DNA of 64,000 bases from Deltaproteobacteria bacterium (GCA_032128115.1 JAQBHB010000036.1:5872-69871), one strand, 5' to 3'. Counted from the first letter of the stretch, positions 39,902-59,786 are shown. A program made the numbers and translations. The notes: generated by a model not told the origin, from the sequence alone.

Positions 39902-40987
39902 ATGGTCGATCCGAAGCGCGCGGGCGTGTCGGCGAAGGATTGGGAAGAGGCGACGGCCTCCTGCCACGAGCTTCGCGTGGCGAAGATCGTGGAGGAGACC
40001 CACGACGCCCGCTCCATCGTGCTCGCGGTGCCCGAGTCCCTGCGCGGGCGCTTCGCCTACAAGGCGGGGCAGTTCCTCAGCTTCAAGATCCCGTATCGGG
40101 GCGTGGTGCTGACGCGCAGCTATTCCCTGTGCAGTTCGCCCGAGTGCGATCCGGAGCACAAGATCGCCGTCAAGCGGGTCGACGACGGCAGGGTCTCCAA
40201 CTGGATGAACGACGAGCTTCGCGAGGACGACACCTTGATGGTGGTGCCGCCGGCGGGCTTCTTCGTGCTCGACGACGCGACCAACAAGCTGGTGCTCTTC
40301 AGCGGCGGCAGCGGCATCACGCCGTGCATCGCGTTGATCAAGACGGCACTCGTCACCACGCGTCGAGATCTCAAGCTGGTGTACGCCAACCGCGACGCCC
40401 GCTCGATCATCTTCCAGCAGGAGCTCGAGGCGTTGCGCGAAAAGCACGGAGATCGCTTCGAGATCGTGCACTCGCTCGACGACGTGGACGGGTTCCTGGA
40501 TCTGCACGCGGTCAAGCGCCACGTGGGCGATGACGTGGGTGCCGACTTCTACCTGTGCGGCCCGGGCCCCTTCATGGCGACGGTGGAGGCATCTCTCGAA
40601 GAGATGGGCGTGCACATGGACCGTATCCATGTGGAGCACTTCGCATCGCCCGCGGATCCCGGAGAGGCGGCAGAGGAAGCGGCGGCACCTGCCGCCGAGG
40701 GCGAGGTGGTGCCCGACTCGATCACGGTGGTGCTCGATGGGGTGACCCACCAGGTTCCCTACGAAGCGGGGGAGAAGGTGCTGCACGCGGTGCGGCGTGC
40801 GGGCCTCGAGCCCCCCTTCTCGTGCGAGGAGGGCTACTGCTCGTGCTGCATGGCGAAGCTCGTCGGCGGCCAGGTGCAGATGGCCACCAACGACTGCCTG
40901 ACCCCCGAGCTCCTGGAAGAGGGCTGGGTGCTCACCTGCCAGTCGCGCTGCGTGAGCGCCAGGATCCGGGTCGAATACCCGGACTGA
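39902..40987 (+). CDS. ferredoxin-NAD(P)+ reductase-type oxidoreductase with C-terminal plant-type 2Fe-2S domain (PaaE-like)
   Basis: Trimmed to ATG 39902. FAD-binding RSYSLCSSP, NAD-binding LVLFSGGSGITPCIAL, and a C-terminal cluster CEEGYCSCCMAKL..LTCQSRC. Confidence 0.85.
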   Translation: MVDPKRAGVSAKDWEEATASCHELRVAKIVEETHDARSIVLAVPESLRGRFAYKAGQFLSFKIPYRGVVLTRSYSLCSSPECDPEHKIAVKRVDDGRVSNWMNDELREDDTLMVVPPAGFFVLDDATNKLVLFSGGSGITPCIALIKTALVTTRRDLKLVYANRDARSIIFQQELEALREKHGDRFEIVHSLDDVDGFLDLHAVKRHVGDDVGADFYLCGPGPFMATVEASLEEMGVHMDRIHVEHFASPADPGEAAEEAAAPAAEGEVVPDSITVVLDGVTHQVPYEAGEKVLHAVRRAGLEPPFSCEEGYCSCCMAKLVGGQVQMATNDCLTPELLEEGWVLTCQSRCVSARIRVEYPD

Positions 40988-43388: not shown

Positions 43389-43476
43389 GGCCGCAGCGTG
43401 GCGTTCGCAACGGAAGATGTCCTGATGAGAACCTGGGGGTTTCCTGGGGGTGTTGCTGTGTTCGAAGCTATTGAAA

Positions 43477-46400: not shown

Positions 46401-46581
46401 ACACGGCGGCGCCCTGCCAGACGCCGTCCAGCAGCTCGGTCTTGGATACCACCCGTTCCCGGTGGTGCAGCAGGTGCAGCAGCACGTCGAAGGCTCGGGG
46501 TTCGAGCTTCACGACCTTCCCGCGTCGTCGAAGCTGGAACAGCTCCTCGTCGAGTTCGCAGTCGCGAAAGGCGTAGATCAC
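43477..46581 (-). CDS. large transcriptional regulator: N-terminal OmpR/PhoB-type winged-helix DNA-binding domain + P-loop NTPase + TPR-like repeats (1034 aa)
   Basis: wHTH VKLEPRAFDVLLHLLHHRERVVSKTELLDGVW..VHGRGYRF. Walker A LLLLVGEPGIGKTRTA and Walker B LVLMLDDLHWAD. Long helical-repeat C-terminus. No receiver domain. Confidence 0.85.
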   Translation of the reverse strand: MIYAFRDCELDEELFQLRRRGKVVKLEPRAFDVLLHLLHHRERVVSKTELLDGVWQGAAVSESVLPSCVAAVRRAVGDDRRGAVIATVHGRGYRFAAAVARSPGGPRADGDLVPLPAPAADTPFVGRDPAIQSLRAGLASALSGHGRLLLLVGEPGIGKTRTAQEFGAQARRRGALVYSARCHEGGGAPAFWPWVRLLRACIEDADAATLPHDLGPGVAEIANLAPELRERLGDVPEAPPLGNEQARFRLFESVTRFLLALARRKPLVLMLDDLHWADDASLQLLRFATGEIAHAPVLLIGAYRDVEVHRGNPLATVLGALAREPVCERIALRGLPARDVALLVEGVGGRPPSARMLSSVCEMTEGNPFFVQEVVRLLADGPAENWDEAGSSPLALPQSVRDAIGRRLDSLSSECNRVLRVASVLGRDFASGQLSRVSGVERDRLLDALGEAVSAHVLAESPENPGVYVFGHALIRQTLYDELDNAERVRLHLRTAEALEEACGAHPEPHLAELAHHFFLASAGGDPKRAVHYCTRAAERAQRLLAYEEAARQYGRAVHALELCVPRDETRRCELLLECGDAHATAAGPPVARDAYRAAAEIARALSRPDLLARAALGYRGGEMGAPVADDILALVEEALLAIGDDHPALRARLLGRRIGTPPHSLSMATRAELSREARAMARDTGDREALRDVLLASRWACLGPDRIGERRTLAAEMFDLAQEIDDKSLAAAGHDVLMGAHMLQGEISAAYDALDTYTQIASELRQPLFEWQASVWRGSRAAAMGDFDEAETLIREARERGRGTVDYANFVYAGQMYFVRLARGDRDDVEESPIFFGEMIESPYSWAPAIRATLAQVWAEQGETPRAQRELDELAVDEFASIPRDEHWLPTIGSFGGLAMVLEDRARAEQLRELLAPYADLVMVHDLLRVPMASVGTMLAGLDTVLGRFDAAAVQFERALARETGMGLVLAPHSTRASYAHMLLRRGATGDARRARLLMDEAIAGWRRCGIRNAPRSGRRYPELASRMAEKLQ

Positions 46582-46611
46582 CCGCGCAGGGTATCACGCG
46601 CGAGCCGCGCC

Positions 46612-48015
46612 CTAGAAGCTGTAGCGGATCTCGAAGAAGATGCGGTCGTTGCGGGCGATGTTCTGGAACGTGGCCAGGCTTCCCTTCTGGTAGAAGACGA
46701 TGCCGCCCGCCAGCTCGAGTGCATCGCGAAGATCGTAGCTGGCGTCGAGCCGGACGACGCTGCCGTCATTGGCGGTGGGCCCCAGGATCAGCCCCAACAG
46801 GGTCATCTGCAGACGATCGTTCAGGAAATTTGCGGTGATCCGCGCCGCCGTCTCCATCGAATTCTTCTGCTGCCCGTCGGGGAACGCCTTCAACGCGCTG
46901 TCGAAATCGTTGATGTGTCGGTTTGCGATCTCCAGGGAAAAGTTCCAGTCGTTGATGCCGTAGTACTCGACGCCCGCCATGAAGTCGGTGCGCGACTTTT
47001 CGTCGCTGACGTTGAAATAGTCGTAACCGTCGATCCAGGCCAGCTCGCTCTTGAACAGCCAGCTTCCCAGGGTGTAGTTGCCGCCGCCGCCCACCAGAAG
47101 CAGGCGGTCGTGGTTGAGCTGGGTTCCTGACGGATCCAGGAACGCGATGTCCTCGTAGTACGACGCCAGGTTGAGCGAGACGTCCCAGCCCTGGAAGACG
47201 CCGTTCGCGGCGAGGCCGTACTCCGGGCTGCTGGGTTTTCGCTGGGCGGGACTCGAAGCGGGGGCCGGAAAGAAGTCGTTTCCGAAAACCGGCTGGATGC
47301 TGAAGCGGATTTCCGGGATCACCAGGCCGGTGATGCTCCAGGGGCCGATGTAATAATCGCCCCGGATCATCGCCACCCCGAGCTTCAGATCCTCGATGTC
47401 GGCCAGGCCCGGCTCCCGGTTGTCCAGCGGGTTGATCACGTCGAGTACGCGCAGGGAGTCGGAGCGGCCCCAGTTCACGATCTGGCGCCCGATCTTGATG
47501 TCGAAGTCTTTGTGGAGGCTTCCGGCCAGGTAGGCCTCCTGCAGTTGGACATCCCACTCGTAGTTGTTCAAGACCTGCCGGGTGTAGTTCCGGTCGTTGA
47601 TGATGTACATGAAGTCGTAGAACGCGTAGCCATCGACGCGAATGCGCCAGTCGGCCGGTAGATTGCCGTCCAGTTCGAGGCCGAGCTTCGTGCGCAGCTT
47701 GGAGAGCCCGCCGTAAGGAGCCCCGTTGGGGGCGGGACCGGTGGACCGGTGGCTCAGATAGTTGACGGAAGTGCTGAGCAGGAGATCCCCGCCCATGTCC
47801 CACCAGCTCCAGAACGAGCCGTCCTCGATCTCCTCCAGAAGAGATTCGTTGGGCTCGCCGGACTCCTCGTCCCCGTCTTCGAAGCCGCCGAGCAGATCAT
47901 CCAGGTCGCCTCCGACCTCATCGGCGCGCACCGGGGCCGCCGTGACTGCACACGCGGCCGCCAGGGCCGCTGCGAGCAGTCGGACGGGGGCGCGCATCCT
48001 CGAACCGCGCACCAC
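46612..48015 (-). CDS. outer-membrane beta-barrel protein (DUF1302-like / porin-like), 467 aa
   Basis: Signal peptide ..RLLAAALAAACAVTAAPVRA, an acidic linker, then alternating amphipathic strand pattern. The C-terminal ..FFEIRYSF has a terminal Phe typical of BAM substrates. The family name is tentative, and the start could be Met 47997. Confidence 0.65.
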   Translation of the reverse strand: MVRGSRMRAPVRLLAAALAAACAVTAAPVRADEVGGDLDDLLGGFEDGDEESGEPNESLLEEIEDGSFWSWWDMGGDLLLSTSVNYLSHRSTGPAPNGAPYGGLSKLRTKLGLELDGNLPADWRIRVDGYAFYDFMYIINDRNYTRQVLNNYEWDVQLQEAYLAGSLHKDFDIKIGRQIVNWGRSDSLRVLDVINPLDNREPGLADIEDLKLGVAMIRGDYYIGPWSITGLVIPEIRFSIQPVFGNDFFPAPASSPAQRKPSSPEYGLAANGVFQGWDVSLNLASYYEDIAFLDPSGTQLNHDRLLLVGGGGNYTLGSWLFKSELAWIDGYDYFNVSDEKSRTDFMAGVEYYGINDWNFSLEIANRHINDFDSALKAFPDGQQKNSMETAARITANFLNDRLQMTLLGLILGPTANDGSVVRLDASYDLRDALELAGGIVFYQKGSLATFQNIARNDRIFFEIRYSF

Positions 48016-48030
48016 TGTTCGTCTCCCGGG

Positions 48031-48834
48031 TCAAAGCCCTTTTTCGAGTTGTCGAATCGTGAACTGGCTCTCCGCCAGGTCCTGGTTGAAGCGAACATTA
48101 TCGGCCTTGATCACGGTCTTGTGCAGGGTGGCCTTGCCCTTCTTGGTGGTCATCTCCATCTCGGTGGGGACCCAGATACCGTCGATCTTCTCCAGCTTCT
48201 TCACATCCAGATACTTCTCGCGATTGCCCTTCTTCACCCAGTTCTTGGATCGGACGACCACGTCGTTGTCCTGGCGCACGAAGAAGATCGACTTGGTGTA
48301 GCCGGTTTCGTCGATCTCCTTCTCCGTATTGGGGATCGCTTCCACGATCCAGATCTTGTGGCCATCCAGCTCGGTCTCTTTGATCAGGCGGTAATCGTAG
48401 CGGTCGAGCTCACGGGAGGTCATGTCGGCGTAGGTGAAGTCCGAGCCCATGAAGCTGCCGCTCTTGTCGCTACTGGCGATTCGTTTGGTCTTCTTCAGGG
48501 CGGGCAGATACAGCCACTGGTCGTCGTCCGCGTCCGCGTCGTCGTAATCGAATGTGAGGAATCCGGTGTCCTTCACGTCAGCGGGCGACTGGAAGAACAT
48601 GATCGTCTCGGTGTCTTCTCCCTTGTCGCGGCGATAGGAGCGGATTTCGCGTTCGCGGCGACTGCCGTTCTTGTCGATCAGCGTCATCGCCATGTCCTGG
48701 ATGGCGTTGTCGCCGTCATCGCGGGCGTCCACGCGCTCCATGATCTCACGTCCCGTGGGTTCCGCGGCGGCGGGAGCCGAAAGCAGCAGGGCCAGGGCGC
48801 TCGACAGGATCGCAACGAGGGTGTGCCGTCTCAT
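48031..48834 (-). CDS. LolA-like 'outer membrane lipoprotein-sorting' fold protein (periplasmic, 267 aa)
   Basis: Tail of track ORF 48031..49869 from ATG 48834 (ATGA overlap with the RND stop). Signal peptide MRRHTLVAILSSALALLLSAPAAA. Blocks IMERVDARDDGDN, MFFQSPADVKDTGFL, QWLYLPALKKTKRIASSDKSGSFMGSDFTYADM are typical of the LolA_like family that accompanies COG1033 RND genes. Confidence 0.82.
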   Translation of the reverse strand: MRRHTLVAILSSALALLLSAPAAAEPTGREIMERVDARDDGDNAIQDMAMTLIDKNGSRREREIRSYRRDKGEDTETIMFFQSPADVKDTGFLTFDYDDADADDDQWLYLPALKKTKRIASSDKSGSFMGSDFTYADMTSRELDRYDYRLIKETELDGHKIWIVEAIPNTEKEIDETGYTKSIFFVRQDNDVVVRSKNWVKKGNREKYLDVKKLEKIDGIWVPTEMEMTTKKGKATLHKTVIKADNVRFNQDLAESQFTIRQLEKGL

Positions 48835-51236
48835 CCGGTGGTCTCCGTACTCATGTGGGAAAGGGGTCGCGGGCGCGCAACCAGGGTGATCAGCGCCGGC
48901 GACAGCAGCACGTCGGCGAGGAAGGCGATGACGATGGTGAAGGCCGTCAGCAGGCCGAACTGCAGCAGGATTCTCATGGAGGCGAAGGCGTAGACCAGGA
49001 AGCCCGTGGAGAGCACCAGGCTCGTGAAGAGCAGGGCCTGACCGGTGGACGAGAGGGTTTCTCGCACTGCGCTTCGAATATCTCCGCTGCGCTCGTAGTA
49101 GCGCCTGAAATTGTGCATGAAGTGGATCGTGTCGTCCACGGCGAGGCCGATGGCGATGCTCCCGATCAGGAGCGTGAAGGCGTCCAGGGGCAGTCCGAAC
49201 CAACCCATCAGCCCGATCGTCACCAGGATGGGCGCCAGGTTCGGAACCATGCTCAACAACCCGATCCGCAGGTTTCCGATCAGGAGGATCATGAGCGGCG
49301 TGATGATCAGGAAGGCCAGGACGTAGGTCTTGGCCATGCTGTACATCACGGCCTTGATGGTGCGACCCAGGATGCTCATGATTCCGGTGGCGGTGACCTG
49401 GTAGCTGTCGGGCAGGATCTGGCTGTACCCCGCCTGGAGCAGATCGATGAAGTCGCCGTAGTCGATGGCGTCGACGAAGGGCAATTTGATGGTGAACCGG
49501 GCCACCTGGAAGCGCGAGTCCACCAGGTCTTCCAGATCGTCGGACCCGCTGTTTTCGAAGAGCAGCAGCTCCTGGGCCACCAGCAGGCGATCGTCGGGAA
49601 TGGCGTAGAAGTCGCTCCGGTTCTCGTTCAGGGCCTGGTGGATCTCCTTGACCACGTCGGCCACGGAGACGGTCTTGCCCACGTGCACCTTGTTCAGCCG
49701 CGCGTCTTCGGAGAAGCGACGCATCTCGTCCAGGCGATTCAGGGCCGCGGGCTCGTGCAGTCCGTTCTCGACGCCCGTATCCACCAGGATCTCCAGGAAC
49801 ATGGATCCCGCAAGGCGGTCGTTGATGACGTCGCTGGAGACCCGGAAGTAGTCGTCCCGCGGAAACCACTCGAGCGGTGCGTGGGAGAAACGCAACTGGG
49901 CCGCGCCCACGGCACAGAAGGCCAGGATGCAGGCGCTTACCAGCACCACGGCTCCCGGGTGTTGCGTGGCGAAGTCGCCCGCGCGCACCAGCCAGCGCTG
50001 GGTCACCTGGGGCGCCGGGTCGGCCGTCCGGGCCGCCCCCATGGGCACCACCGAGATCAGGGCGGGCAGCAGCACCACCGTCATCAGGAGCGACATCATC
50101 ACGCCCACCGGGGCGAAGATCCCGAACTCGGCGATGGGACCCAGCTCGGCGCTCGCGAAGGAGATCAGGCCCCCGGCCGTGGTGAGACTCGTCATCACGA
50201 TGGGGAGCCCCGAGTGGCCCAGGGCCCCGGCGATGGCCTCCTTCTTGGCGTGTCCGGCGCGCCGGCGCTGATAGAAGATCACCAGTACGTGCACGGCGTT
50301 TCCGACACCCACGGCCAGCAGGAACGAGGGCAGGATCTGGGTCGGGAGCGCCAGTTCCACACCGGCGGCCGCCATGATCGAGAGGGTCGAGAGCAGAGAC
50401 AAGATCACGATCAAGAGCGGCAGGGCGACGGCCGCTGGGCGGCGGAACAACAGGAAGAGCAGGGCGCCGATGGCGACGATGGCCAGCAACGTGAAACGGG
50501 ACATGTCGCGCCGCATGGAGTTCTGAAGGGCGTCGGTGAGAACCGGGGCCCCGGCCATGTGGATGCGGAAATCCGGCGCGTCGTAGCGCTTCACCACCGC
50601 GTTGATGGCGGTGACGATTTCGTGGTTCTCCGCGCCGGTGATGAACGGGAGGGGTGCGGCGTCTGCATCGTCGTCGAACCCGGCCAGGTCGTCATCCACG
50701 CCGATCGAGGTGTAGGCGTCGGTCTCGATGGTGAAGGTCGTGATGCGGCCATCTTTCGAGAGGAGCAGGTTCGTGTACAGGGGATTCGAGAGGGCGCGCA
50801 GTTTCGCCGTGGCCAGCTGCTCGGGGGTCTCGGGCCACTCCTCGAGGAGATCGCCCACGATCAGCTCGTTCTCCTCGCCGCGGGTGAGCCGCGCGTTGAC
50901 GAGGCTGGTCACCTCCACGAGCTTGGGAACCTGGTTCTCGATGTCGCTGTGCATCGCGCGCAGCTTCTCGAGGAACACCAGGTCGAAGATCTCCGGCGTC
51001 TCTACCGACAGCAGGATGGCGTCGTCGCGACCGAACTGCTGGCGGAAGGCGTCGTAGGTGAGGCGCACCGGGTCGTCTTCCTTCAGGAAGCCCTCCGTCG
51101 AGGTATCGATCGCGATCTTCGGAAGCTGGGTGAGCAAGCCGGCCACGACGATCAGAACGATTCCGATGGTCTGCCAGGCGTGTTCGTACGCGAAACGCCC
51201 CCAGCGCGAGAGTTCGCTCTCGAAACGTTCCCTCAC
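48831..51236 (-). CDS. RND-superfamily permease of the COG1033 / MMPL / HpnN-like type (801 aa), paralog 2
   Basis: Same architecture as 40932..43388. Its start overlaps the TetR stop by 4 nt. Confidence 0.85.
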   Translation of the reverse strand: MRERFESELSRWGRFAYEHAWQTIGIVLIVVAGLLTQLPKIAIDTSTEGFLKEDDPVRLTYDAFRQQFGRDDAILLSVETPEIFDLVFLEKLRAMHSDIENQVPKLVEVTSLVNARLTRGEENELIVGDLLEEWPETPEQLATAKLRALSNPLYTNLLLSKDGRITTFTIETDAYTSIGVDDDLAGFDDDADAAPLPFITGAENHEIVTAINAVVKRYDAPDFRIHMAGAPVLTDALQNSMRRDMSRFTLLAIVAIGALLFLLFRRPAAVALPLLIVILSLLSTLSIMAAAGVELALPTQILPSFLLAVGVGNAVHVLVIFYQRRRAGHAKKEAIAGALGHSGLPIVMTSLTTAGGLISFASAELGPIAEFGIFAPVGVMMSLLMTVVLLPALISVVPMGAARTADPAPQVTQRWLVRAGDFATQHPGAVVLVSACILAFCAVGAAQLRFSHAPLEWFPRDDYFRVSSDVINDRLAGSMFLEILVDTGVENGLHEPAALNRLDEMRRFSEDARLNKVHVGKTVSVADVVKEIHQALNENRSDFYAIPDDRLLVAQELLLFENSGSDDLEDLVDSRFQVARFTIKLPFVDAIDYGDFIDLLQAGYSQILPDSYQVTATGIMSILGRTIKAVMYSMAKTYVLAFLIITPLMILLIGNLRIGLLSMVPNLAPILVTIGLMGWFGLPLDAFTLLIGSIAIGLAVDDTIHFMHNFRRYYERSGDIRSAVRETLSSTGQALLFTSLVLSTGFLVYAFASMRILLQFGLLTAFTIVIAFLADVLLSPALITLVARPRPLSHMSTETTG

Positions 51237-51919
51237 GCTTCCGCTCCCCTGCGAGCGCGCGGTTCAGTGATCCCGTGCAGCACGAGCTCGGAAACAGCAC
51301 GGGTGAATTCTTCGATGTGCTCGGGCGTGATCTCGCGCAGGTCGAACATGCGGCGAACCACCGGGGCTGCCAGGAAGAACCACAGGCACATCCCGGCCAG
51401 TGCGGGCACGAAGTACATGGGGTCGACGCGCCGGAACTCGCCCGCCTCGAAGCCGTCATGCAGTACGGCCTGGATGGCCGCCAGATTCGGGCGTCCGAAC
51501 TGCTCGACGAATCCCTCGATCACGTCGTCCTCGGCGAACAGGATCTGCTCGGCCGCCAGGCGTGGGAAGTAGGGGTCATCCTTGAAGCCGGCGATCCAGC
51601 TCTCGATCAGGCCCTGCACGCGTTCTCCGGCACTTCCGCCGCCGCGGCTGGCCTGCTGGATGCGTTCGATCCCCTCGCTGGCGACCTCCAGTATCACGGC
51701 GCGCAGCAGCCCCTGCTTGCCGCCGAAGTAGTAGTTCACCAGTGCGGGCATCACCCCGGCCCGCTCGGCCACCTCGCGCGCGGTGACGAGCGGGTAGCCC
51801 TTTTCCGCCATCAAGAACCGGGCCGCCTGCAGCAGGGCGCGGCGCCCCTCACCCGTTCGGGAACCGGCGGGCCGCCCGGGTCCGCGACGTTCGGGAGATT
51901 CGGTGCCAGAGCGAGGCAT
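51233..51919 (-). CDS. TetR/AcrR-family transcriptional regulator
   Basis: 228 aa. HTH AARFLMAEKGYPLVTAREVAERAGVMPALVNYYFGGKQGLL. First gene of the RND operon. Confidence 0.88.
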   Translation of the reverse strand: MPRSGTESPERRGPGRPAGSRTGEGRRALLQAARFLMAEKGYPLVTAREVAERAGVMPALVNYYFGGKQGLLRAVILEVASEGIERIQQASRGGGSAGERVQGLIESWIAGFKDDPYFPRLAAEQILFAEDDVIEGFVEQFGRPNLAAIQAVLHDGFEAGEFRRVDPMYFVPALAGMCLWFFLAAPVVRRMFDLREITPEHIEEFTRAVSELVLHGITEPRARRGAEA

Positions 51920-51960
51920 TAAATTTATTGTATGTTCATTTATTAATTACAACAAGAGAA
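51920..51960. promoter_or_regulatory. AT-rich divergent promoter/operator region
   Basis: TAAATTTATTGTATGTTCATTTATTAATTACAACAAGAGAA is almost devoid of G/C in an otherwise high-GC window. Direct repeat ATTTATT (51923-51929, 51938-51944). Inverted repeat TTGTA (51928-32) / TACAA (51948-52). Abuts the TetR start codon. Confidence 0.55.
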
Positions 51961-51999
51961 CTCTGGGGAAATCGGGTGCTCTCACCTAACGTGCCGGAG

Positions 52000-52446
52000 A
52001 TGCGGGGCTTTTCTTGCCTGGGCGCCGCCCTGGCCAGCGGTCTGGTGGGGCTCGCCTGTGCCACCCAGCCGGAGATTGGCGTGGAGATCGGCCTGGCCTC
52101 GGTGCGGTCGGTCGAGGCGGTGGTCATGGATTCGATCCCCAAGAATGTTCTCGTGATCGTGCGGGGCCGCCTGCCCAACGCCTGCACCCGCCTGGGGAGG
52201 CCTCGTCGCGAGCGTTTCGCCGGCCGTTTCGAGTACACCCTGCCGATTCGACGCGACCCTACCGAGCCGTGTGCCCAGGCGATCCAGGAATTTGAAACCA
52301 GTTTCCGGATCGCGGCCCACGATCTGGAGGAGCGCCTCTACCGGGTGTCGGTGAACGGGGTGAAGGACGACTTTTCGATCCTGATCGAGCCGGGCACTGA
52401 GGATTTCTACCGGGATGAGGGCCTCGGAGAGTTCGATCCGCCTTGA
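52000..52446 (+). CDS. hypothetical lipoprotein (148 aa)
   Basis: Trimmed to ATG 52000. MRGFSCLGAALASGLVGLAC has a lipobox (LVGLAC). No family recognised. The start is uncertain, since GTG 51991 is also possible. Confidence 0.55.
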   Translation: MRGFSCLGAALASGLVGLACATQPEIGVEIGLASVRSVEAVVMDSIPKNVLVIVRGRLPNACTRLGRPRRERFAGRFEYTLPIRRDPTEPCAQAIQEFETSFRIAAHDLEERLYRVSVNGVKDDFSILIEPGTEDFYRDEGLGEFDPP

Positions 52447-52506
52447 CCGCCTGCCGATCGCGGCGCACCATCGGTCGTGCCCCCCGACAACCTCGAGGGA
52501 CTCGCC

Positions 52507-52839
52507 ATGAACCGTCACTCGCTCCGACGTCAGGCGCTCGTGCTCGTAGCCGTGTGCGTCCTGCTCCCCCTTCCCGTTCACGCCGGGCACGACGACGCTC
52601 CGAGCCTCCTGAGTGAGGGCGGGTCCGGAACCGGCGCTGCGCTCGCGAGCCTGGTGTACGCGCCTCTCAAGCTGGCCTATGCGGCCGGTGGGCTCGTAAT
52701 CGCGGGGATCACCTGGGCATGGACGGCGGGTGACACCAACGTGTCTGGACCGATCTATCGAAGCTCGGTGGGCGGCGACTACGTCATCACTCCCGATCAG
52801 TTGTTGCGCGAAGAACCTCTCAGCTTCGCCGGCCAATGA
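52507..52839 (+). CDS. hypothetical secreted/membrane protein (110 aa)
   Basis: Trimmed to ATG 52507. Signal peptide MNRHSLRRQALVLVAVCVLLPLPVHA and an internal hydrophobic segment AAGGLVIAGITWAW. No family recognised. Confidence 0.5.
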   Translation: MNRHSLRRQALVLVAVCVLLPLPVHAGHDDAPSLLSEGGSGTGAALASLVYAPLKLAYAAGGLVIAGITWAWTAGDTNVSGPIYRSSVGGDYVITPDQLLREEPLSFAGQ

Positions 52840-52860
52840 CCCGCGATCGCGGCGCAGGCG

Positions 52861-53460
52861 CTACACCGGGGCGCCGCCGTGTGTTTCTTCCAGGTGTGCC
52901 GTGCACGCCAGCAACTGCACACGCCAGGGTGGAGACGCCTCCACGATCGTGAGCGCCGTGTTCGGGAAGCCCGTCACCTCCGGATCCAGCACGCCTGCCC
53001 CCAAGTGTCGCGACACGAGGGAATGGCATACGAGGCCGTGGGTCACCACCGCCAGGTTCCCGCGCGTTCCGGACGCGATTTCACGGATCCGATCCCAGGC
53101 CGTATCCACGCGTCGATGAAAGACCTCCCAGCTCTCGCCGCCAGGTGGCACGAACTGCGGCCCGAAGGGATCCTGGGCCAGTTCCGCGTACGGCCTGCCC
53201 CGCAGGTCTCCGAAGTTGCGCTCCTGCAGAAGCGGCTCGAACTCGAGTTGAACACCCGTCGATGCACGCAGCGCCTCCGACGTCATGACGGCGCGGGAGA
53301 GGTCGCTGGAGAGAATGTGCGCCACGCCCTCGTCCCGCAATCGCCGGGCCAGGCGTTGCGCTTGCTCGCGGCCCCGGTCACTCAGAGGCGTGCCGGGGGT
53401 CTGAAGCACCCGCGCCGCGTTGGACGGCGTTTCAGCGTGGCGGATCAGGAGGATCGCCAC
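52861..53460 (-). CDS. histidine phosphatase (phosphoglycerate-mutase-like) family protein
   Basis: 199 aa. N-terminal catalytic motif ILLIRHAETPSN, later LSDRGREQA and VVTHGLV. Confidence 0.85.
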   Translation of the reverse strand: MAILLIRHAETPSNAARVLQTPGTPLSDRGREQAQRLARRLRDEGVAHILSSDLSRAVMTSEALRASTGVQLEFEPLLQERNFGDLRGRPYAELAQDPFGPQFVPPGGESWEVFHRRVDTAWDRIREIASGTRGNLAVVTHGLVCHSLVSRHLGAGVLDPEVTGFPNTALTIVEASPPWRVQLLACTAHLEETHGGAPV

Positions 53461-53468
53461 GCTCGCGT

Positions 53469-53837
53469 CTAGCTCGCCTGCTTCGTGAACATCGCCATGT
53501 CGAAGTAATCACGCCAGGCGGTGATCTGGCCCTCGGAGTTCACCTCGAAGGCGCCCATCACCGGAAGCTCTACCGGCTTGCCGTTCAGCACGAAGCGATC
53601 CAATCGCTCCGTGTAGACGGTGTTTCCGCTGCTGGCGATTCCGCGCAGTTCGAACTCCGCCTCGCTCGCTGGCGACAGGAACTGACCCAGAATGGCCCGA
53701 ATCGCGTCGTGGCCCACGACCGGGGCAATCGGAATGTTGTGGTAGACCGCGTCGCTGCTGAAGAAGCCCAGCAACTCCTCCAGGTCACGCCGCGGAATGG
53801 CCGTGCAGAAATCTCGAACGACTTTTTCGGGTTCCAT
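53469..53837 (-). CDS. SnoaL/NTF2-fold protein, limonene-1,2-epoxide-hydrolase-like
   Basis: 122 aa. Pattern VRDFCTAI..DLEELLGFFSSDAVYHNIP..G.DAIRA..F and the C-terminal ITAWRDYFD. Confidence 0.72.
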   Translation of the reverse strand: MEPEKVVRDFCTAIPRRDLEELLGFFSSDAVYHNIPIAPVVGHDAIRAILGQFLSPASEAEFELRGIASSGNTVYTERLDRFVLNGKPVELPVMGAFEVNSEGQITAWRDYFDMAMFTKQAS

Positions 53838-53848
53838 GCGGCCAGTCT

Positions 53849-53888
53849 ATCAGGAAGCGGCGCGGACCATCAGGAAGCGGCGCGGACG
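53849..53888. repeat. 20-bp tandem duplication (ATCAGGAAGCGGCGCGGAC C/G) spanning the stop codon of the DUF330 lipoprotein gene
   Basis: Read directly and confirmed through the track translation (..SLSGSGADHQEAARTR..). Copy 1 is 53849-53868 and copy 2 is 53869-53888, with 19 of 20 bases identical. Copy 2 holds the last five codons (VRAAS) plus TGA of the gene ending at 53870. Confidence 0.9.
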
Positions 53889-54481
53889 AGGAAGGCGGCG
53901 TAGATTCGCGTGAGGGCCCGGTTCATGGCGCGCACCGAGGCTTCGACGCTCTCGTCGCTGGCCCGCTCCTCCTCGTAGAAGGTCTCCAACACCGCCAGGT
54001 CGCGCTGCGGCATGCGCACCACCACCAGCTCCAGCTCCACGCGCACCCGGGGTGGATTCTCTCCGAGAATCCGCTCGAGACGCAGGATCCGGCCGCCCAG
54101 GAGGTAGTCGGCGTCGATCCGCATTTCGGGGGTCACCACCTGGGGAGCGGCGCCCGCGGCGCGCAGGTAGCGCGCCAGTTCGAGCTGGGCCATCCGCGTC
54201 GGCGGCTCGACCCAGCGGTGATACGAATGCCGCAGCAGTTCCGGCGAATCTTCGCCGTCCCGGTAGACCAGCGGACGCTCTCCCGCCAGGGCATCCGCCT
54301 GGAACAGGTCCACCTCCAGCGTACCCGGGAACACGGGAGCCGCCCGCGGGCTCGCCGGGGGGCTGATCTGGAGCCGGTAGAAGTGATCGCGGGGGGCGGG
54401 GGGCGCTACACAGCCCAGCGCGACCAGGGCCGTGGCCCCCGCCCGACGCAAGGCCCCGGCGGCACGACCCCGGCTCATCAC
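53870..54481 (-). CDS. ABC-transport auxiliary lipoprotein (DUF330, PqiC/YmbA-like)
   Basis: 203 aa. Lipobox ALVALGC. Motifs RDHFYRL and DYLLGGRILRLE are typical of DUF330. ATGA overlap with the MlaD-like gene. Confidence 0.78.
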   Translation of the reverse strand: MMSRGRAAGALRRAGATALVALGCVAPPAPRDHFYRLQISPPASPRAAPVFPGTLEVDLFQADALAGERPLVYRDGEDSPELLRHSYHRWVEPPTRMAQLELARYLRAAGAAPQVVTPEMRIDADYLLGGRILRLERILGENPPRVRVELELVVVRMPQRDLAVLETFYEEERASDESVEASVRAMNRALTRIYAAFLVRAAS

Positions 54482-55272
54482 TCACCCGTCCCGGCGTCGG
54501 GATCGGTGGACCGCCCTCGCAGCAGCAGACTCGGATCGCGGCGGATCTGGTTGCTGAACTCCGCCAGGTTGCGGGCGGTGGCGTCCAGATTGCGGCTCAC
54601 CGCATCGATGTGTCGCGCCACGGCCTCGAGGGAATGGTGCAGGTCATCGACGGAGTGGTCCAGGCTGCCCTGGTTGCGTGCCAGGAGTCCATTGGCCTGG
54701 GTGAGCAGCTGGTCGAGCTGTCCGCGTGTGGTATCCAGGTCGCCGGTAGCGGCGGCCAGGTTGTTCACGATCTCCGGCACACCTTCGGCCAGGCTATCCA
54801 CCAGAGGCCGGATGCTTTCCTGCAGCAACGTCTCGATGTCGTCCGCGATCTTCGAAACGGCTGCCAACAGGTTCGGCGCCTCGCCGCCAGGGATCTCGCC
54901 GCCGGGTTGGATCGCCGATGCCGAGGATCCCGCCCGGATGTCGATTCCCACGGCGGAGAGCAATCCCCCGGCACTGATGCGGGCCTCGCTGTCCGACGGA
55001 ATCCGCCACCCGCGGCGCACGCCCACTTCCACGCGGAAGCGCTGTTCTCCCCCGGGTGCTGCGGGTGCGATGCTCTCGATCAAGCCCACGGGATAGCCCT
55101 CGAAGAGCACCTCGCTGCCCGCGGCCAGCCCCATCACGTTGCCGTAGTGGATGTAATAGTGGTCGGTCGCGCCGGTGCGCCCGGTGAGCACCGCCAGCCA
55201 CACCACCAGGGCGATGACCATGGCCAGCACGAAGCTTCCGACCATCACGTAGTTTCGCCGGTCGTCAGTCAC
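54478..55272 (-). CDS. mlaD: MlaD/MCE-domain substrate-binding protein of an Mla/Mce-type ABC transporter
   Basis: 264 aa. N-terminal TM anchor VMVGSFVLAMVIALVVWLAVL. MCE domain YYIHYGNVMGLAAGSEVLFEGYPVGLIESI. Helical C-terminus. Confidence 0.85.
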   Translation of the reverse strand: MTDDRRNYVMVGSFVLAMVIALVVWLAVLTGRTGATDHYYIHYGNVMGLAAGSEVLFEGYPVGLIESIAPAAPGGEQRFRVEVGVRRGWRIPSDSEARISAGGLLSAVGIDIRAGSSASAIQPGGEIPGGEAPNLLAAVSKIADDIETLLQESIRPLVDSLAEGVPEIVNNLAAATGDLDTTRGQLDQLLTQANGLLARNQGSLDHSVDDLHHSLEAVARHIDAVSRNLDATARNLAEFSNQIRRDPSLLLRGRSTDPDAGTGE

Positions 55273-56092
55273 GGTTGCGGCTCCCGCCGGTCAGACGCGC
55301 GAGATATTCATCCGGGTCCAGGGTCTCTTCCACGAAGTGACGACTCAGCAGGTTGTGGATCCTCGGGTTGTCGCTGTTCCGAACCGCCTCGGCGCTGTCC
55401 AGGGCGAGGAGTTCTCCCTTGTCGAGCACGGCGATGCGGTCGGCGATTCGGAAGGCGCTGTCGAGATCGTGGGTCACCACCACGATGGTCATGCCCAGGG
55501 CATCGCGCAGGCGCAGGATCAGTTCGTCCAGCCCGGCGGCCACCACCGGATCGAGGCCTGCCGAGGGCTCGTCGCAGAACAGCAGCGTCGGATCCATGAT
55601 GATCGCCCGCGCGAATGCCGCGCGCTTGATCATTCCGCCGGAGAGTTCCGAGGGCATCAGGTCTTCGAAGCCCGCGAGACTCACGATCTCCAGCTTGAGC
55701 CGCAGCATGATCTCCATGGTGTCGGCGTCCAGGTTGGTGTGTTCCCGGAGGGGCAGCTTGATGTTGTCGCCCAGATTCATGGAGCTGAAGAGCGCGCCGC
55801 CCTGGAAGGCCACGCCGATCTTCTTGTAGATCTCGTACTGGCCCAGATCGTCCAGCTCGCCCAGCAGCTTGCCCAGCAACCGGATCGAGCCCGAGCTGGC
55901 ACGCTCCAGGCCCAGCAGATGCCGGAGCAGCGTGCTCTTGCCCGAGCCGCTGCCGCCCATGATCACCATGATCTCGCCCGGCAGAACCGTCAGGCTCACA
56001 TCGTGGAGGATCTCGCGCTCGCCGTAATGGGCGACCAGGTTGTCCACCTGGATCACCGGGGTGCTGGCATTCTGGGGGGACGCTGCGCGCAT
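55265..56092 (-). CDS. mlaF: ABC transporter ATP-binding protein (MlaF-like)
   Basis: 275 aa. Walker A GGSGSGKST, signature LSGGMIKRAAFARA, Walker B LLFCDEPSAGLD, H-loop VVVTHD. Confidence 0.92.
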   Translation of the reverse strand: MRAASPQNASTPVIQVDNLVAHYGEREILHDVSLTVLPGEIMVIMGGSGSGKSTLLRHLLGLERASSGSIRLLGKLLGELDDLGQYEIYKKIGVAFQGGALFSSMNLGDNIKLPLREHTNLDADTMEIMLRLKLEIVSLAGFEDLMPSELSGGMIKRAAFARAIIMDPTLLFCDEPSAGLDPVVAAGLDELILRLRDALGMTIVVVTHDLDSAFRIADRIAVLDKGELLALDSAEAVRNSDNPRIHNLLSRHFVEETLDPDEYLARLTGGSRNRD

Positions 56093-56093
56093 G

Positions 56094-56912
56094 TCAGCGG
56101 GTGGTGATGAACACGAATATCATGTCCGTGAGAACGATGGCGGTGATCGCTTGCACCACGGATCGGGTCGTGGCGGCGCCCACCCCCTCGGCGCCCCCTC
56201 GAACCCGCGCGCCGTTGGCGACGCCGATGATCGTGATGAGGATCGCGAACAGGACGCTCTTGGTGAGGCCCCGCATCACGTCCTCGGCGTGCAGGTACCG
56301 GAGAGCCTGGTCCACGTACGCAGTGAAAGTCGATCCCAGGTCCGCCGACACGTAGAGCCCCGCTCCAAAGAGCGCCACCAGGTCGGCCCACAGCGTGAGC
56401 GCCGGGAGCATCACGACCATGGCGATCAGGCTGGGCACTACCAGGAAGCGCACCGGGTTGATGCCCATCACCCGCAGTGCGTCGACTTCGTTGCTGATGG
56501 TCATGGTTCCCAGGCGCGCAGCCAGGGCCGATCCCGAGCGCCCGGCCACCAGGATCCCGGTGATCAGAGGTGCGAACTCGCGGGTCACCGAAAGGGCAAC
56601 CCCCAATACCACCTGGTGCTGGGCGCCGAACGGCTCCAGGGCGTCGATGCCCTGGATCGCCAACATGAGTCCGATGGTGAACGAGAGCAGGGTGGCGATG
56701 GGCAGCGCATGGATTCCCACCTGCATCATCTCGGCGAAAGCGGGGGCCGCGCGCACCGGCTGGTGCCGCCGCCGGCCGAGCACCAGCCAGTACAGCGATT
56801 GCCCCAGGAGGCTGGCGCCGAAGCCCAGGGTCTCGAGACCGCGGGCGGTGCTCCGGCCGATGCTCTCCAGCAGCCCCGGCGGGGAAGAGGCGGTGTCACT
56901 CGCCTCCGGCAT
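56094..56912 (-). CDS. mlaE: MlaE-family ABC transporter permease
   Basis: 272 aa. MlaE blocks REFAPLITGILVAGRSGSALAARLGTM, EVDALRVMGINPVRFLVVP, LTKSVLFAILITIIG. Confidence 0.9.
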   Translation of the reverse strand: MPEASDTASSPPGLLESIGRSTARGLETLGFGASLLGQSLYWLVLGRRRHQPVRAAPAFAEMMQVGIHALPIATLLSFTIGLMLAIQGIDALEPFGAQHQVVLGVALSVTREFAPLITGILVAGRSGSALAARLGTMTISNEVDALRVMGINPVRFLVVPSLIAMVVMLPALTLWADLVALFGAGLYVSADLGSTFTAYVDQALRYLHAEDVMRGLTKSVLFAILITIIGVANGARVRGGAEGVGAATTRSVVQAITAIVLTDMIFVFITTR

Positions 56913-57231
56913 CGAGCCCTTCGGGCAGCCTGTCGTGAATCGTGAACAGCTCGTCGAGCCGCGCCAGTTCGAGCACCCGCATGGCCGCGCTGCCCACCGA
57001 TACCAGCGCGAATTTGGTGCCGTTGCGCCGGGCCGCCTGGAACGCCTCGATGAGGCTGGCCACTCCCGAGCTGTCGATGTAGTTCACGTCCGAGAGGTCG
57101 ACCCAGACGTCTTGCTTGCGTCCCACGGACTCCAGCAGGATCTGCCGCGCTCGCGGGGATTGCTCGAGATCCACGTCCCCCTGTAGGCAAACCACGATCC
57201 CGATCGAGACATCCCTTACCGAGTGCCGCAC
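56896..57231 (-). CDS. STAS-domain protein (anti-sigma-factor-antagonist / MlaB-like) with canonical phospho-serine motif
   Basis: 111 aa. VDLSDVNYIDSSGVASLIEAFQAARRNG carries the SpoIIAA/RsbV-type DSSG motif. Its 3' end overlaps the mlaE-like start by 17 nt. Confidence 0.88.
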   Translation of the reverse strand: MRHSVRDVSIGIVVCLQGDVDLEQSPRARQILLESVGRKQDVWVDLSDVNYIDSSGVASLIEAFQAARRNGTKFALVSVGSAAMRVLELARLDELFTIHDRLPEGLDAGGE

Positions 57232-57256
57232 TGTGTCCTCCCGCTCCGGGCCTGGG

Positions 57257-57685
57257 TCATTCGATCCGCTTCACCATTCTAAACAAGTTGCCGGGCTCGG
57301 CGTCGGTATTCACGAATTCGGCCCGGTCCATCACCGACCGGATCAGATGGGTTCCCAACCCGCCCGGGCGCAGGTCGTCCAGGTCGCGCGGCTTCACCTG
57401 CGCCGGATCCACCTTGGGAGCGAAATCGCGCAGGGAGAAGATGAGCTCGTCGCCCCGACGATCCACGTGGAGCTGGATCTCCCCGCCGGGAAGCCCGCCG
57501 TAGGCGTGGCGGATCACGTTCTGGCAGGCCTCGTCCACGGCCATCACCACATCGGTGACGCACCCGTCGCCGGCGCCGCTCCCGACGATGCAGGCGCGGA
57601 CCGCGTCGCGAACCTCGCACAGCTGGTCGGCCTGGGCCGGGAATCGCAGGTCCAGCAGACGCTCCGGCGCCGCAGCTTCGGTCAC
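57257..57685 (-). CDS. RsbW/SpoIIAB-type anti-sigma serine kinase (HATPase_c, 142 aa)
   Basis: Tail of track ORF 57257..58750 from GTG 57685, which overlaps the phosphatase stop (GTGA). N-box VDEACQNVIRHAY and G-box RPGGLGTHLIRSVMD. Confidence 0.85.
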   Translation of the reverse strand: MTEAAAPERLLDLRFPAQADQLCEVRDAVRACIVGSGAGDGCVTDVVMAVDEACQNVIRHAYGGLPGGEIQLHVDRRGDELIFSLRDFAPKVDPAQVKPRDLDDLRPGGLGTHLIRSVMDRAEFVNTDAEPGNLFRMVKRIE

Positions 57686-58989
57686 AGGTCGTCCGCCGCG
57701 GGCTCGACCGCCAGCATGGTGAGGTCGTCGCGGATCTGGTGCGTCGCCACGTCGGTCACGATGGCGTCGACCCGGCCGCCGATCGGCTCGTCCGCGAAAC
57801 GGTCGATGATGCGTTTGACGCCCTCGGCACCCAGGGGGGCGGAGCCCGCGCAGGCCTCGGTCAGCCCGTCGGAAAAGACGTAGAGCGAGCACCCGTTCAG
57901 CGACAGGGCAACCTCGGGGAAGCTTCCGGAGGCCAGGCCGATGCCCAGGGGTGGGGCCTGGGCGCGGATCTCCTCGAAGCGGCCCGGTCCCGAGCGCAGC
58001 AGGGCCGGCTCGTGACCGGCGTTGGCAATCACCGCCACGCGCGACTTGCGGTCGTAGACGCCGGCCAGCATCGTGACGAACTTGCCGTGGGAGGCGGTCT
58101 CGGAGAGCTCGCGATCGAGCTCGGCTAGCAGGTCGTTGGGATTCTCGATCGACCGGGCCAGATAGCGATACAAGCTCGACGTCTTCACCATCATCAAGGC
58201 GGCGTCCATTCCCTTGCCGGACACGTCGCCCAGGCAGAAGCCCACCCGCCCGTTCTGGAGAGGCAGGATGTCGTAGAAGTCCCCTGAAACCGTTCGCGCC
58301 GGAACGTTCACGCCGAAGATCGGGAAGGGCTCCGGCCGCGGAGCGGGCAGCAGGCTCCGCTGGATCTCCGCGGCGGTGCCCAGGTCGCGCTTCACGCGTT
58401 CGTGGTCGACCAGATCGGCGGTCATGCGCGCGTTGGCCATGGCCAGGGCCGCGGAAGACGCCAGCACCCGCAACAGCCGGGCATCGTTCTCGCTGAAGCG
58501 CCCGTCGCCCGCGGCTTTGTTCACCATCTGGATGGCGCCCATGGGGCGATCCATGAAGCTGATGGGTGAGCACAGGACGGAGCGCGTTTCGAAGCCCGTG
58601 CGCTCGTCCATCTCGCGGGCAAAATCCGGGTCGCGGGACACGTCGAAGATGCGCTGGCACATGTTCTCGCGCACCGTGCGACCTACGATGCCCTGGTTCT
58701 CCGAGAGGCGAGCGCCATCGATCCTTCCGGGACCCACCGAGGCGTGGCACACGATCTCGCGACTCTCCGGGGCCACCAGCCAGATGGAACCGGAGCGGGC
58801 GCCCACGGATTCGACGATGGACGGGAGCGCCCGTTTCAGGGCGGTCTCCACGTCCAGGGATTCGGCGAAGTCCTGGTTCATGCGGGCCAGCAGGGCGAGC
58901 GCCGGGGAGAAGTCTTCGCCCCCGGTGTTCGTGGCAACTCCTCCCGGCACGGCAGTCGGGCCCTTGGGTCGCGGTGTTTCGAGGCTCAC
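57682..58989 (-). CDS. GAF-domain PP2C/SpoIIE-type serine phosphatase (RsbU-like)
   Basis: Tail of track ORF 57682..60126. Start chosen at GTG 58989 (GGAG 9 nt upstream); ATG 58881 is the alternative. GAF: SGSIWLVAPESREIVCHASVG..GIVGRTV. PP2C: VSGDFYDIL, CLGDVSGKGMDAALMM, ANAGHEP, VFSDGLTEA, DDLTMLAV. Confidence 0.85.
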   Translation of the reverse strand: MSLETPRPKGPTAVPGGVATNTGGEDFSPALALLARMNQDFAESLDVETALKRALPSIVESVGARSGSIWLVAPESREIVCHASVGPGRIDGARLSENQGIVGRTVRENMCQRIFDVSRDPDFAREMDERTGFETRSVLCSPISFMDRPMGAIQMVNKAAGDGRFSENDARLLRVLASSAALAMANARMTADLVDHERVKRDLGTAAEIQRSLLPAPRPEPFPIFGVNVPARTVSGDFYDILPLQNGRVGFCLGDVSGKGMDAALMMVKTSSLYRYLARSIENPNDLLAELDRELSETASHGKFVTMLAGVYDRKSRVAVIANAGHEPALLRSGPGRFEEIRAQAPPLGIGLASGSFPEVALSLNGCSLYVFSDGLTEACAGSAPLGAEGVKRIIDRFADEPIGGRVDAIVTDVATHQIRDDLTMLAVEPAADDL

Positions 58990-59090
58990 GGATGGGCGCT
59001 CCCGTCGGGGCAGCGGCCCCAGGGTATCCGATTCCGGCGCTCGGGACGGGGTTACCTGCCCCGGGGCCGCCAGCGTGCGCAGCGCGCGAA

Positions 59091-59786
59091 TCAGCCCGAC
59101 GCGAGCCCGCGCAGGATGATCTCCATCAGGGCGTCGGCGGTCTTCTTGGGCGAGGCCGCGATCTGGCCCATCACGTCCGGCTGCGAGAACTCGCGGCCGA
59201 GTCCGCCCAGCAGGTGCGCCATGGCCACGCTGTCCACCGGGCGGATCTGCCCATCGGCCACGGCGCGGTCCAGCAGGCTCCGGGTCACCGCCATCACGTA
59301 GCCCTCGTGGGCGTCCAGCAGCGGCTTGGCCCCGGGCAGATCGGCGAAGTCGCGACTGAACGCGGCCGTGGAGGGCTGCACGGCTTCGTTCACCGCCTCC
59401 AGGTAGGCGCGCAGGGCCTGAAGCGCCGGCAGGGTCGGGTCGAGCGATTCGATCGCGGCGCGCCCGATCCGGTGCAGACGGCGATCGACCACGGTGAGCA
59501 CCAGCTGGTCCTTGCCGGGCGAGATCTCGTACAGGGTGCGCAGCGAGCAACCCACCTGGCCCGCGATCTCGGCCATGGTGAGGTCCGCCAGACCGCTGCG
59601 CACCACCAGCTCCTCGAGCGCGTCGAGCACCTGACGCTGGCGCTCGGTGAGCCGCTGCTCGGCGTCCGGGGGCAGCAAGGGCTTCGGCGCGCGCACACCG
59701 GGCAAACGCGCGTGGGTGTGGCGGGCCGCGGGCGCGGTCAAGGGAGCAGCGCCTCGGGGATTTCCACGACCCGGGCCCGCAGCCAC
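59091..59786 (-). CDS. TetR-family transcriptional regulator
   Basis: HTH LADLTMAEIAGQVGCSLRTLYEISPGKDQL. ATG 59786 would overlap the upstream gene by 49 nt. GTG 59696 is a non-overlapping alternative start. Confidence 0.8.
   Translation of the reverse strand: MAAGPGRGNPRGAAPLTAPAARHTHARLPGVRAPKPLLPPDAEQRLTERQRQVLDALEELVVRSGLADLTMAEIAGQVGCSLRTLYEISPGKDQLVLTVVDRRLHRIGRAAIESLDPTLPALQALRAYLEAVNEAVQPSTAAFSRDFADLPGAKPLLDAHEGYVMAVTRSLLDRAVADGQIRPVDSVAMAHLLGGLGREFSQPDVMGQIAASPKKTADALMEIILRGLASG

Follow-up and report, generated by a model that had tools for sequence, protein, structure and literature searches.

In this study, a block of seven genes from a Deltaproteobacteria bacterium is described that may place a lipid transporter under the control of its own regulatory module. 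The block (53870-58989) lies on the minus strand of a 64,000-nucleotide (nt) stretch of DNA (GCA_032128115.1 JAQBHB010000036.1:5872-69871), which will be called the window and is numbered from its first letter. Open reading frames (ORFs), Pfam, and reading of the sequence identify the genes, in order, as those of a PP2C-type phosphatase, a kinase, a STAS protein, an MlaE-type permease, an MlaF-like ATPase, an MCE protein, and a lipoprotein. Judged from sequence, we hold with moderate confidence that in this operon a trans-envelope lipid ATP-binding cassette (ABC) transporter of the Mla/Mpc type is coupled to a dedicated serine phospho-switch, in which the STAS protein would dock on the ATPase in the fashion of MlaB. 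In its fuller form the proposal is that the kinase and phosphatase, often combined in one sensor protein, reversibly phosphorylate the STAS subunit and so govern the engagement of the ATPase with the permease, which would be the first case of a natural phospho-switch on a transporter of the Mla/MCE type. To this form we give a little less than an even chance.

Gene order and conservation

The seven genes run head to tail (Table 1). The kinase starts with a GTG over the stop codon of the phosphatase gene (GTGA, a 4-nt overlap), a 25-nt gap separates the kinase gene from the STAS gene, and the start of the permease gene lies over the STAS stop codon with an overlap of 17 nt. The permease and ATPase genes are 1 nt apart, the ATPase gene overlaps the MCE gene by 8 nt, and the MCE gene overlaps the lipoprotein gene by 4 nt. 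Co-translation can be argued from the overlaps of 4-17 nt. That the block is a single operon is part of the best explanation, about which we are evenly divided. A scan of 52400-59400 for promoters and terminators returned nothing beyond shuffled expectation and is uninformative at 68% G+C.

A sequence-only reading of the same DNA had proposed this block. Its positions and strand agree with the ORFs and the sequence for all seven genes, its domain identities were confirmed gene by gene with Pfam, and the packing that it described (overlaps of 4-17 nt, gaps of 25 nt or less) matches the junctions given above. The motifs that it listed for the three regulatory proteins (VSGDFYD, GDVSGKG, NAGHEP, FSDGLTE, DDLTML, EACQNVIRHAY, GGLGTHL, and DLSDVNYIDSSGVASL) were all found.

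The kinase alignment was scanned against one genome per species and the best 80 loci were annotated by tblastn. The kinase family is present in at least 431 species-representative genomes, and public data hold more than 1,200 close homologues of the STAS protein and nearly 900 of the kinase. The sequence-only reading had asked whether the gene adjacency is conserved in relatives, and it is, in 65 of the 70 evaluable genomes across three phyla: the seven genes occur in order in 65 of the best 80 loci, 10 loci are cut by a contig end, and 5 deviate. The lipoprotein gene closes the conserved block in 65 of the 70 evaluable loci. On contigs with STAS homologues at 36-65% identity, the seven genes and their order are retained throughout, and the flanks vary. 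The carriers are Myxococcota/'Deltaproteobacteria' metagenome-assembled genomes, which are the relatives of the window, many Rhodospirillales (Alphaproteobacteria), and two Nitrospirota. The Rhodospirillales include Magnetospirillum, Paramagnetospirillum, Phaeospirillum, and Terasakiella, and the locus of Paramagnetospirillum magneticum AMB-1 (L096, AP007255.1 365247-380914) was confirmed with precomputed Pfam labels.

The phosphatase, kinase, and STAS genes adjoin one another or are fused in virtually all loci. A single GAF-PP2C-HATPase_c_2 polypeptide of 550-610 residues, the product of an in-frame fusion of phosphatase and kinase, is encoded in 48 of 76 related loci; its NCBI product name is 'ATP-binding SpoIIE family protein phosphatase'. 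Examples include L096 7001-8668 (P. magneticum AMB-1, 555 residues), L037, L043, L061, and L073, the last of which was confirmed with Pfam. In the lineage of the window the two genes are separate and overlap by 1 or 4 nt. The fusion fits two antagonistic enzymes with one common substrate, the adjacent STAS protein. The sensor input is modular, as a receiver-domain phosphatase (REC-SpoIIE) replaces the GAF-PP2C protein upstream of the kinase, STAS, and Mla genes in one Nitrospirales genome (L080 4045-5385). The second Nitrospirota genome (L083 5500-8000), one of the 5 deviating loci, has no upstream phosphatase gene; nusA and infB are found there on the other strand.

A predicted serine phospho-switch and its transporter

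The catalytic motifs of both enzymes are conserved. The metal-binding motifs of the phosphatase (SGDFYD, GDVSGKG, NAGHEP, DG.TE, and RDD.T) are kept in 77 orthologues, and in the kinase DEACQN..RHAY (N box) and RPGGLG.H (G2 box) are kept in 84 sequences. The start of the kinase was fixed at 57685 (142 residues), in agreement with a 99%-identical database protein (P0121). Its best match in the PDB is B. subtilis RsbW (6M36, E 5e-7), and the NCBIfam equivalog models for RsbW and SpoIIAB match it with scores far below their cutoffs. The STAS protein has the properties of a substrate for such a kinase. D53-S54-S55-G56 do not vary among 84 STAS orthologues, and the protein scores 65 bits, above the cutoff, with the anti-sigma-antagonist superfamily model TIGR00377 of NCBIfam. 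In an AlphaFold2 model (pLDDT 83) the protein adopts the STAS fold, and helix alpha2 (54-70) opens with Ser54.

The transporter genes encode members of the families of E. coli MlaE and MlaF. The best PDB matches of the ATPase are MlaF of E. coli, A. baumannii, and P. aeruginosa (E ~1e-50), and its Walker A and B motifs, LSGGM signature, and H-loop are all conserved. The permease and the ATPase both score below the cutoffs of the NCBIfam E. coli-type models and are therefore treated as family members and not as orthologues of MlaE and MlaF. The MCE protein combines a membrane helix at its N-terminus with a single MCE domain and a long, helical C-terminal part; its orthologues are 295-333 residues long and give faint matches to Helical_needle and Mce4_CUP1. 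No mlaC or mlaA gene was found among the genes of the block with ORFs, Pfam, and NCBIfam. The length of the MCE protein, and a last gene that encodes a PqiC-like lipoprotein in place of mlaC or mlaB, set the transporter apart from Mla in the strict sense.

By Pfam and gene order the four transporter genes (MlaE-type permease, MlaF-type ATPase, long MCE protein, and PqiC-like lipoprotein) make up the set known as Mpc. In Brucella abortus, the Mla-Pqi chimeric system MpcEFDA has a permease, MpcE, that bears an N-terminal STAS domain termed MlaB-homologous (PMC12436622). The same four-gene layout is present in replicons of Sphingobium, Klebsiella, Azoarcus, and Ruegeria, where the permease is 365-382 residues long as compared with 272 residues in the window. 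The N-terminal 125 residues of these four comparator permeases align with the STAS protein and with MlaB and have D-[ST]-[AG]-G at the acceptor position; the STAS_2 + MlaE composition was confirmed with Pfam for the Sphingobium permease.

Several lines of evidence point to the STAS protein as the subunit that would correspond to this domain. The STAS gene lies directly 5' of mlaE and overlaps it, which mirrors the domain order of the fused STAS-MlaE permeases of the Mpc type. The operon holds no second STAS gene and the permease has no STAS domain. A full-length alignment of the STAS protein with E. coli MlaB (27% identity, BLASTP E 2e-4, hhalign probability 89%) puts Ser54 on MlaB Thr52. This threonine lies centrally in the interface between MlaF and MlaB (PMC7367683); T52E weakens the binding of MlaB to MlaF and T52A abolishes ATPase activity (PMC7367683, PMC5016091). 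The ATPase resembles most closely MlaF proteins that depend on MlaB. In MlaF, a C-terminal 'handshake' extension docks at the MlaF-MlaB groove. The ATPase described here ends in a tail of the same size class, whose sequence LDPDEYLxRLTG is conserved in 74 orthologues, and this acidic-Tyr-Leu tail is missing from the four comparators with a fused STAS domain. The correspondence between the tail and the MlaF extension is suggestive only: in one MAFFT run the Tyr and Leu are placed on Tyr261 and Leu265 of E. coli MlaF, but the result with another sequence set differs, which counts against the match.

The presence of the kinase, phosphatase, and STAS genes together with the transporter genes in one conserved operon suggests that phosphorylation switches the transporter. 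The binding of the STAS protein to the ATPase and its phosphorylation are both steps that we infer from sequence, and the cycle would run as follows. Unphosphorylated STAS protein would dock on the ATPase as MlaB does on MlaF, through a helical face centered on helix alpha2, and would stabilize or activate the ATPase on the permease so that transport is licensed. The RsbW-like kinase would bind the same face and phosphorylate Ser54, and the phosphorylated protein would be released from the ATPase, turning transport off. The phosphatase would then strip the phosphate and turn transport on again, with its activity set by the N-terminal sensor (GAF in the window, a receiver domain in the Nitrospirales relative). 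The sign of the switch, presumably off when phosphorylated, is taken by analogy from the E. coli MlaB T52E variant (Kolich et al. 2020, PMC7367683).

Points against the proposal and competing explanations

A number of observations weigh against a transporter switch built on an MlaB-like subunit. The NCBIfam model mlaB_1 gives the STAS protein 23 bits against a cutoff of 90 bits. In sequence the protein matches TM1442 at 1e-12, with MlaB at E 0.04, and the best fold matches of its AlphaFold2 model are RsbV (TM 0.8-0.88), TM1442, and SpoIIAA, as compared with TM 0.56-0.73 for MlaB (range over query- and target-normalized scores across chains). By sequence and predicted fold, the STAS protein is therefore closer to RsbV, SpoIIAA, and TM1442 than to MlaB. 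No STAS-MlaE fusion was found among the 150 nearest cluster representatives of the STAS protein, and with the STAS domain at the N-terminus of the Sphingobium permease BLASTP gave no alignment. A Ser or Thr is also kept at the acceptor position of MlaB and of the fused STAS domains, for which no kinase is known, so the acceptor residue alone does not imply phosphorylation. The G1 box of the kinase is atypical, with D-F-A-P in place of DxGxG, which is a caveat on its predicted activity. Finally, four of the deviating loci keep the phosphatase, kinase, and STAS genes without the full transporter: the module has no transporter genes at all in L073, is followed directly after the STAS gene by His_Phos_1 and MMPL genes in L086, retains only the ATPase gene in L007, and in L057 retains only the permease gene, followed by hydrogenase maturation genes. 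The absence of transporter genes from these loci may reflect rearrangement, decay, or assembly error.

The sequence-only reading had named the STAS protein as the MlaB equivalent and its phosphorylation state as an on-off switch for lipid transport. The first of these claims stands on gene position and on the alignment of Ser54 with Thr52, but the sequence and fold of the protein lie nearer to RsbV, SpoIIAA, and TM1442. The switch itself is favored by the complete set of kinase, phosphatase, and phosphorylatable STAS protein, by the lack of a nearby sigma factor gene, and by the conserved adjacency of the transporter genes, and it is weakened by the same resemblance to RsbV.

In the strongest competing explanation, the transporter is the alternative partner of the kinase in a switch of classical topology: the ATPase or the permease is bound and inhibited by the kinase (or by a fused phosphatase-kinase), and unphosphorylated STAS protein removes the kinase and never touches the transporter. 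The nearest counterparts of the STAS protein in sequence and fold are antagonists whose only target is their kinase, and the linkage of the genes in an operon would be explained equally well. Distance-matrix partial correlations among the seven proteins over 65 loci give a value for MlaF-kinase (0.25) similar to that for MlaF-STAS (0.29), next to 0.33 for STAS-PP2C and 0.26 for STAS-kinase; the method is weak and its values are unreliable, as the certain MlaE-MlaF contact scored -0.07. We know of no precedent for the binding of an RsbW-type kinase to an ABC ATPase, and this counts against the explanation. A STAS-MlaF complex, by contrast, has been solved structurally (PMC7367683). If only the kinase met the transporter, this would be the sole Mla/Mpc system among those compared that lacks a STAS subunit or domain, and the position of the STAS gene, where the fused permeases have their STAS domain, would be left unexplained. 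We consider this explanation unlikely.

A slightly less probable explanation, which we also regard as unlikely, is an ordinary anti-sigma system in which the kinase sequesters the product of a sigma gene at another locus and the transporter genes are only transcribed along with the module or belong to the regulon. The sequence-only reading had stated that no sigma factor is encoded in the operon or the window. This was borne out by phmmer, as searches with E. coli RpoS, FliA, and RpoE and with the ECF (extracytoplasmic function) sigma factor of L079 against six-frame ORFs returned no sigma-70-family ORF in the 64-kb window (E up to 1-10). A nearby sigma gene was found in only one of 86 related loci, namely an ECF-like ORF in L079 that is on the opposite strand, ~4 kb upstream of the phosphatase gene, and unlinked to it. 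The sigma gene of known systems is usually a direct neighbor. The searches covered 64 kb of the source genome and ~16 kb per relative, a scope that leaves room for a distant gene, and single-sequence queries can miss divergent ECF sigma factors. The kinase does match the RsbW and SpoIIAB models and the RsbW structures, and mycobacterial multi-domain PP2C-kinase-STAS proteins are linked to SigF (Rv1364c), which speaks for a sigma factor output. Against it, the scores of the kinase with these models are well under the equivalog cutoffs, and the module travels with the transporter genes over three phyla despite changing flanks.

It is improbable that the STAS protein is a constitutive MlaB-like structural subunit, with the kinase and phosphatase serving another substrate or not catalytically engaged and no switch on transport: the Ser or Thr of STAS domains with no known kinase and the atypical G1 box would fit this, but the catalytic motifs and the DSSG acceptor are invariant over wide divergence, the three regulatory genes keep together or are fused in essentially every locus, and a kinase-STAS fusion (P0277) is found among the close relatives.

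Long relatives of the STAS protein were considered as possible STAS-MlaE fusions and were rejected, since each was either a TLC/MFS transporter that ends in a STAS domain or a kinase-STAS fusion. Among the close relatives (44-49% identity), P0281, P0334, P0345, and P0363 (830-844 residues) carry a C-terminal STAS domain on transporters of the TLC/MFS type, and P0277 (250 residues) is the kinase-STAS fusion. STAS domains of this subfamily thus seem to have been joined to transporters more than once. A STAS homologue of 146 residues (L006 8001-8441) has an internal tandem duplication of the segment bearing DSSG, which is either a real variant or an assembly artefact.

Known systems and genomic surroundings

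The operon can be compared with four groups of characterized systems. Like the E. coli MlaFEDB system (6XBD, 6XGY), it encodes an MlaE-type permease, an MlaF-type ATPase with the LSGGM signature, an MCE protein, and a small free-standing STAS protein; the two also share the alignment of Ser54 with MlaB Thr52 and an ATPase C-terminal tail of ~25 residues. Unlike the operon described here, the E. coli operon has no kinase or phosphatase genes and mlaB is its last gene, whereas the STAS gene here is 5' of mlaE. In addition, E. coli MlaD is short (183 residues) and works with the soluble MlaC and the outer-membrane MlaA, in contrast to the long MCE protein and PqiC-like lipoprotein found here. The Brucella MpcEFDA system and its homologues in Sphingobium, Klebsiella, Azoarcus, and Ruegeria have the same order of STAS, MlaE, ATPase, long MCE protein, and PqiC-like lipoprotein. 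Their STAS moiety forms the N-terminal part of the permease, and they encode no kinase or phosphatase, whereas the window has a separate DSSG protein preceded by both enzymes; the ATPase tails also differ.

The third group consists of the partner-switching systems with a sigma factor. With RsbU-RsbV-RsbW-SigB and SpoIIE-SpoIIAA-SpoIIAB-SigF of B. subtilis, the operon shares three protein families, namely PPM phosphatases that bear an N-terminal sensor, predicted serine kinases of the GHKL type, and STAS proteins that have D-S-[ST]-G at the start of alpha2. It differs from them in that no sigma factor gene is linked, transporter genes follow downstream, and a single polypeptide often combines phosphatase and kinase. 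The fourth group resembles partner switches but has outputs other than sigma factors. In Vibrio fischeri SypE-SypA (PMC10120452) and in Anabaena HenR/Alr3423/All4160 (PMC13555669, 2026), the phosphorylation state of a STAS domain directly controls an envelope-related process and not a sigma factor, as is proposed here. SypE has kinase and PP2C domains in one chain, like the fused proteins of this operon family, with the difference that a receiver domain lies between them. The outputs of these two systems are biofilm polysaccharide and a glycosyltransferase, respectively, and neither is coupled to an ABC transporter.

Phosphoregulation at MlaB Thr52 was proposed by Thong et al. 2016 (PMC5016091) and by Kolich et al. 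2020 (PMC7367683), with no kinase named. Full-text literature searches returned no paper that ties an RsbW-type kinase or a PP2C phosphatase to an Mla/MCE transporter or that describes this operon. The sequence-only reading had considered a post-translational switch on an Mla/Mce transporter to be uncharacterized; no paper on the operon was found, but the idea of MlaB phosphoregulation had already been published in 2016 and 2020. The new element is the operon, which supplies a kinase for the hypothesized phosphoregulation of the MlaB type, as partner switches without a sigma factor and the MlaB-MlaF complex were already known.

To our knowledge, no mechanism has been established by which bacteria rapidly adjust the movement of lipids between their two membranes. 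The operon family offers a kinase, a phosphatase that bears a sensor, and a STAS protein with a canonical phospho-acceptor, all hard-wired to a related transporter. If the proposed switch is correct, it would supply the example that the MlaB Thr52 hypothesis has lacked, in a system present in hundreds of species including AMB-1. The transporter would join the short list of partner-switching outputs other than sigma factors, and the STAS-ATPase contact would be a regulated site on an ABC transporter. The hypothesis is directly testable, as the operon is present in the genetically tractable P. magneticum AMB-1, for which a random barcode transposon-site sequencing (RB-TnSeq) library exists (PMC8788322). 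The genes of the operon are not mentioned in the paper that describes this library (PMC8788322).

Table 1. Positions of the operon genes and of neighboring genes in the window
Feature	Position	Strand	Evidence and remarks
GAF + PPM/PP2C (SpoIIE-type) serine phosphatase, ~435 aa	57682..58989	-	Pfam GAF_2 1e-13, SpoIIE 8e-36; start at 58989 plausible, not fixed
RsbW/SpoIIAB-like predicted serine kinase, 142 aa	57257..57685	-	Pfam HATPase_c_2 2e-25
STAS protein with a single domain, 111 aa; putative phospho-substrate and putative MlaB-like transporter subunit	56896..57231	-	Pfam STAS 3e-17
Ser54 codon in D-S-S-G, predicted phospho-acceptor	57070..57072	-	Motif invariance, model, MlaB alignment
MlaE-family ABC permease, 272 aa, no fused STAS domain	56094..56912	-	Pfam MlaE 2e-67, residues 59-268; TIGR00056 206 bits
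MlaF-like ABC ATPase, 275 aa, conserved acidic-Tyr-Leu C-terminal tail	55265..56092	-	Pfam ABC_tran
MCE (MlaD-family) protein, 264 aa	54478..55272	-	Pfam MlaD 2e-11, residues 36-115; TIGR00996 Mce family 96 bits
ABC-type transport auxiliary lipoprotein (DUF330/PqiC-like), 203 aa, lipobox LVALGC	53870..54481	-	Pfam ABC_trans_aux 5e-12
TetR-family regulator	59091-59786	-	~100 nt upstream of the phosphatase gene; weak Pfam TetR_N 4e-4, below cutoff
SnoaL/limonene-epoxide-hydrolase (LEH)-like protein	53469-53837	-	Pfam; co-directional, downstream
His_Phos_1 phosphatase-superfamily protein	52861-53460	-	Pfam; co-directional, downstream
TetR	51233-51919	-	Downstream island
MMPL/RND with sterol-sensing domain	48831-51236	-	Downstream island
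LolA-like/DUF1329	within ORF 48031-49869	-	Downstream island
DUF1302	46612-48015	-	Downstream island
AAA_16 + Trans_reg_C regulator	43477-46581	-	Downstream island
Second MMPL	40932-43388	-	Downstream island

Downstream of the operon is an apparent lipid-export island on the minus strand (40932-53837) that starts with the SnoaL/LEH-like and His_Phos_1 genes. These two genes may belong to the transcription unit in the lineage of the window only. In 15 of 86 loci, which all belong to the Myxococcota-like subset, the gene next after that of the lipoprotein is a His_Phos_1 gene, sometimes with a 4-nt overlap, and His_Phos_1, TetR, and MMPL genes are found near the operon only in this subset. The neighboring MMPL/TetR lipid-export genes were also considered as the target of the regulatory module and were rejected, as they are linked to it only in the Myxococcota-like subset; MMPL genes occur in 9 of 86 loci, in 8 of which they are beside the module as in the window.

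Mpc-type operons in which the long permease is read as a STAS-MlaE fusion are present in L093, L097, L098, and L099 (plasmids or chromids of Sphingobium, Klebsiella, Azoarcus, and Ruegeria). Additionally, MlaE-like matches occur on 205 plasmid records, including 64 from Klebsiella, 44 from Citrobacter, and 33 from Escherichia; the operon layout was inspected for the four plasmids/chromids only.

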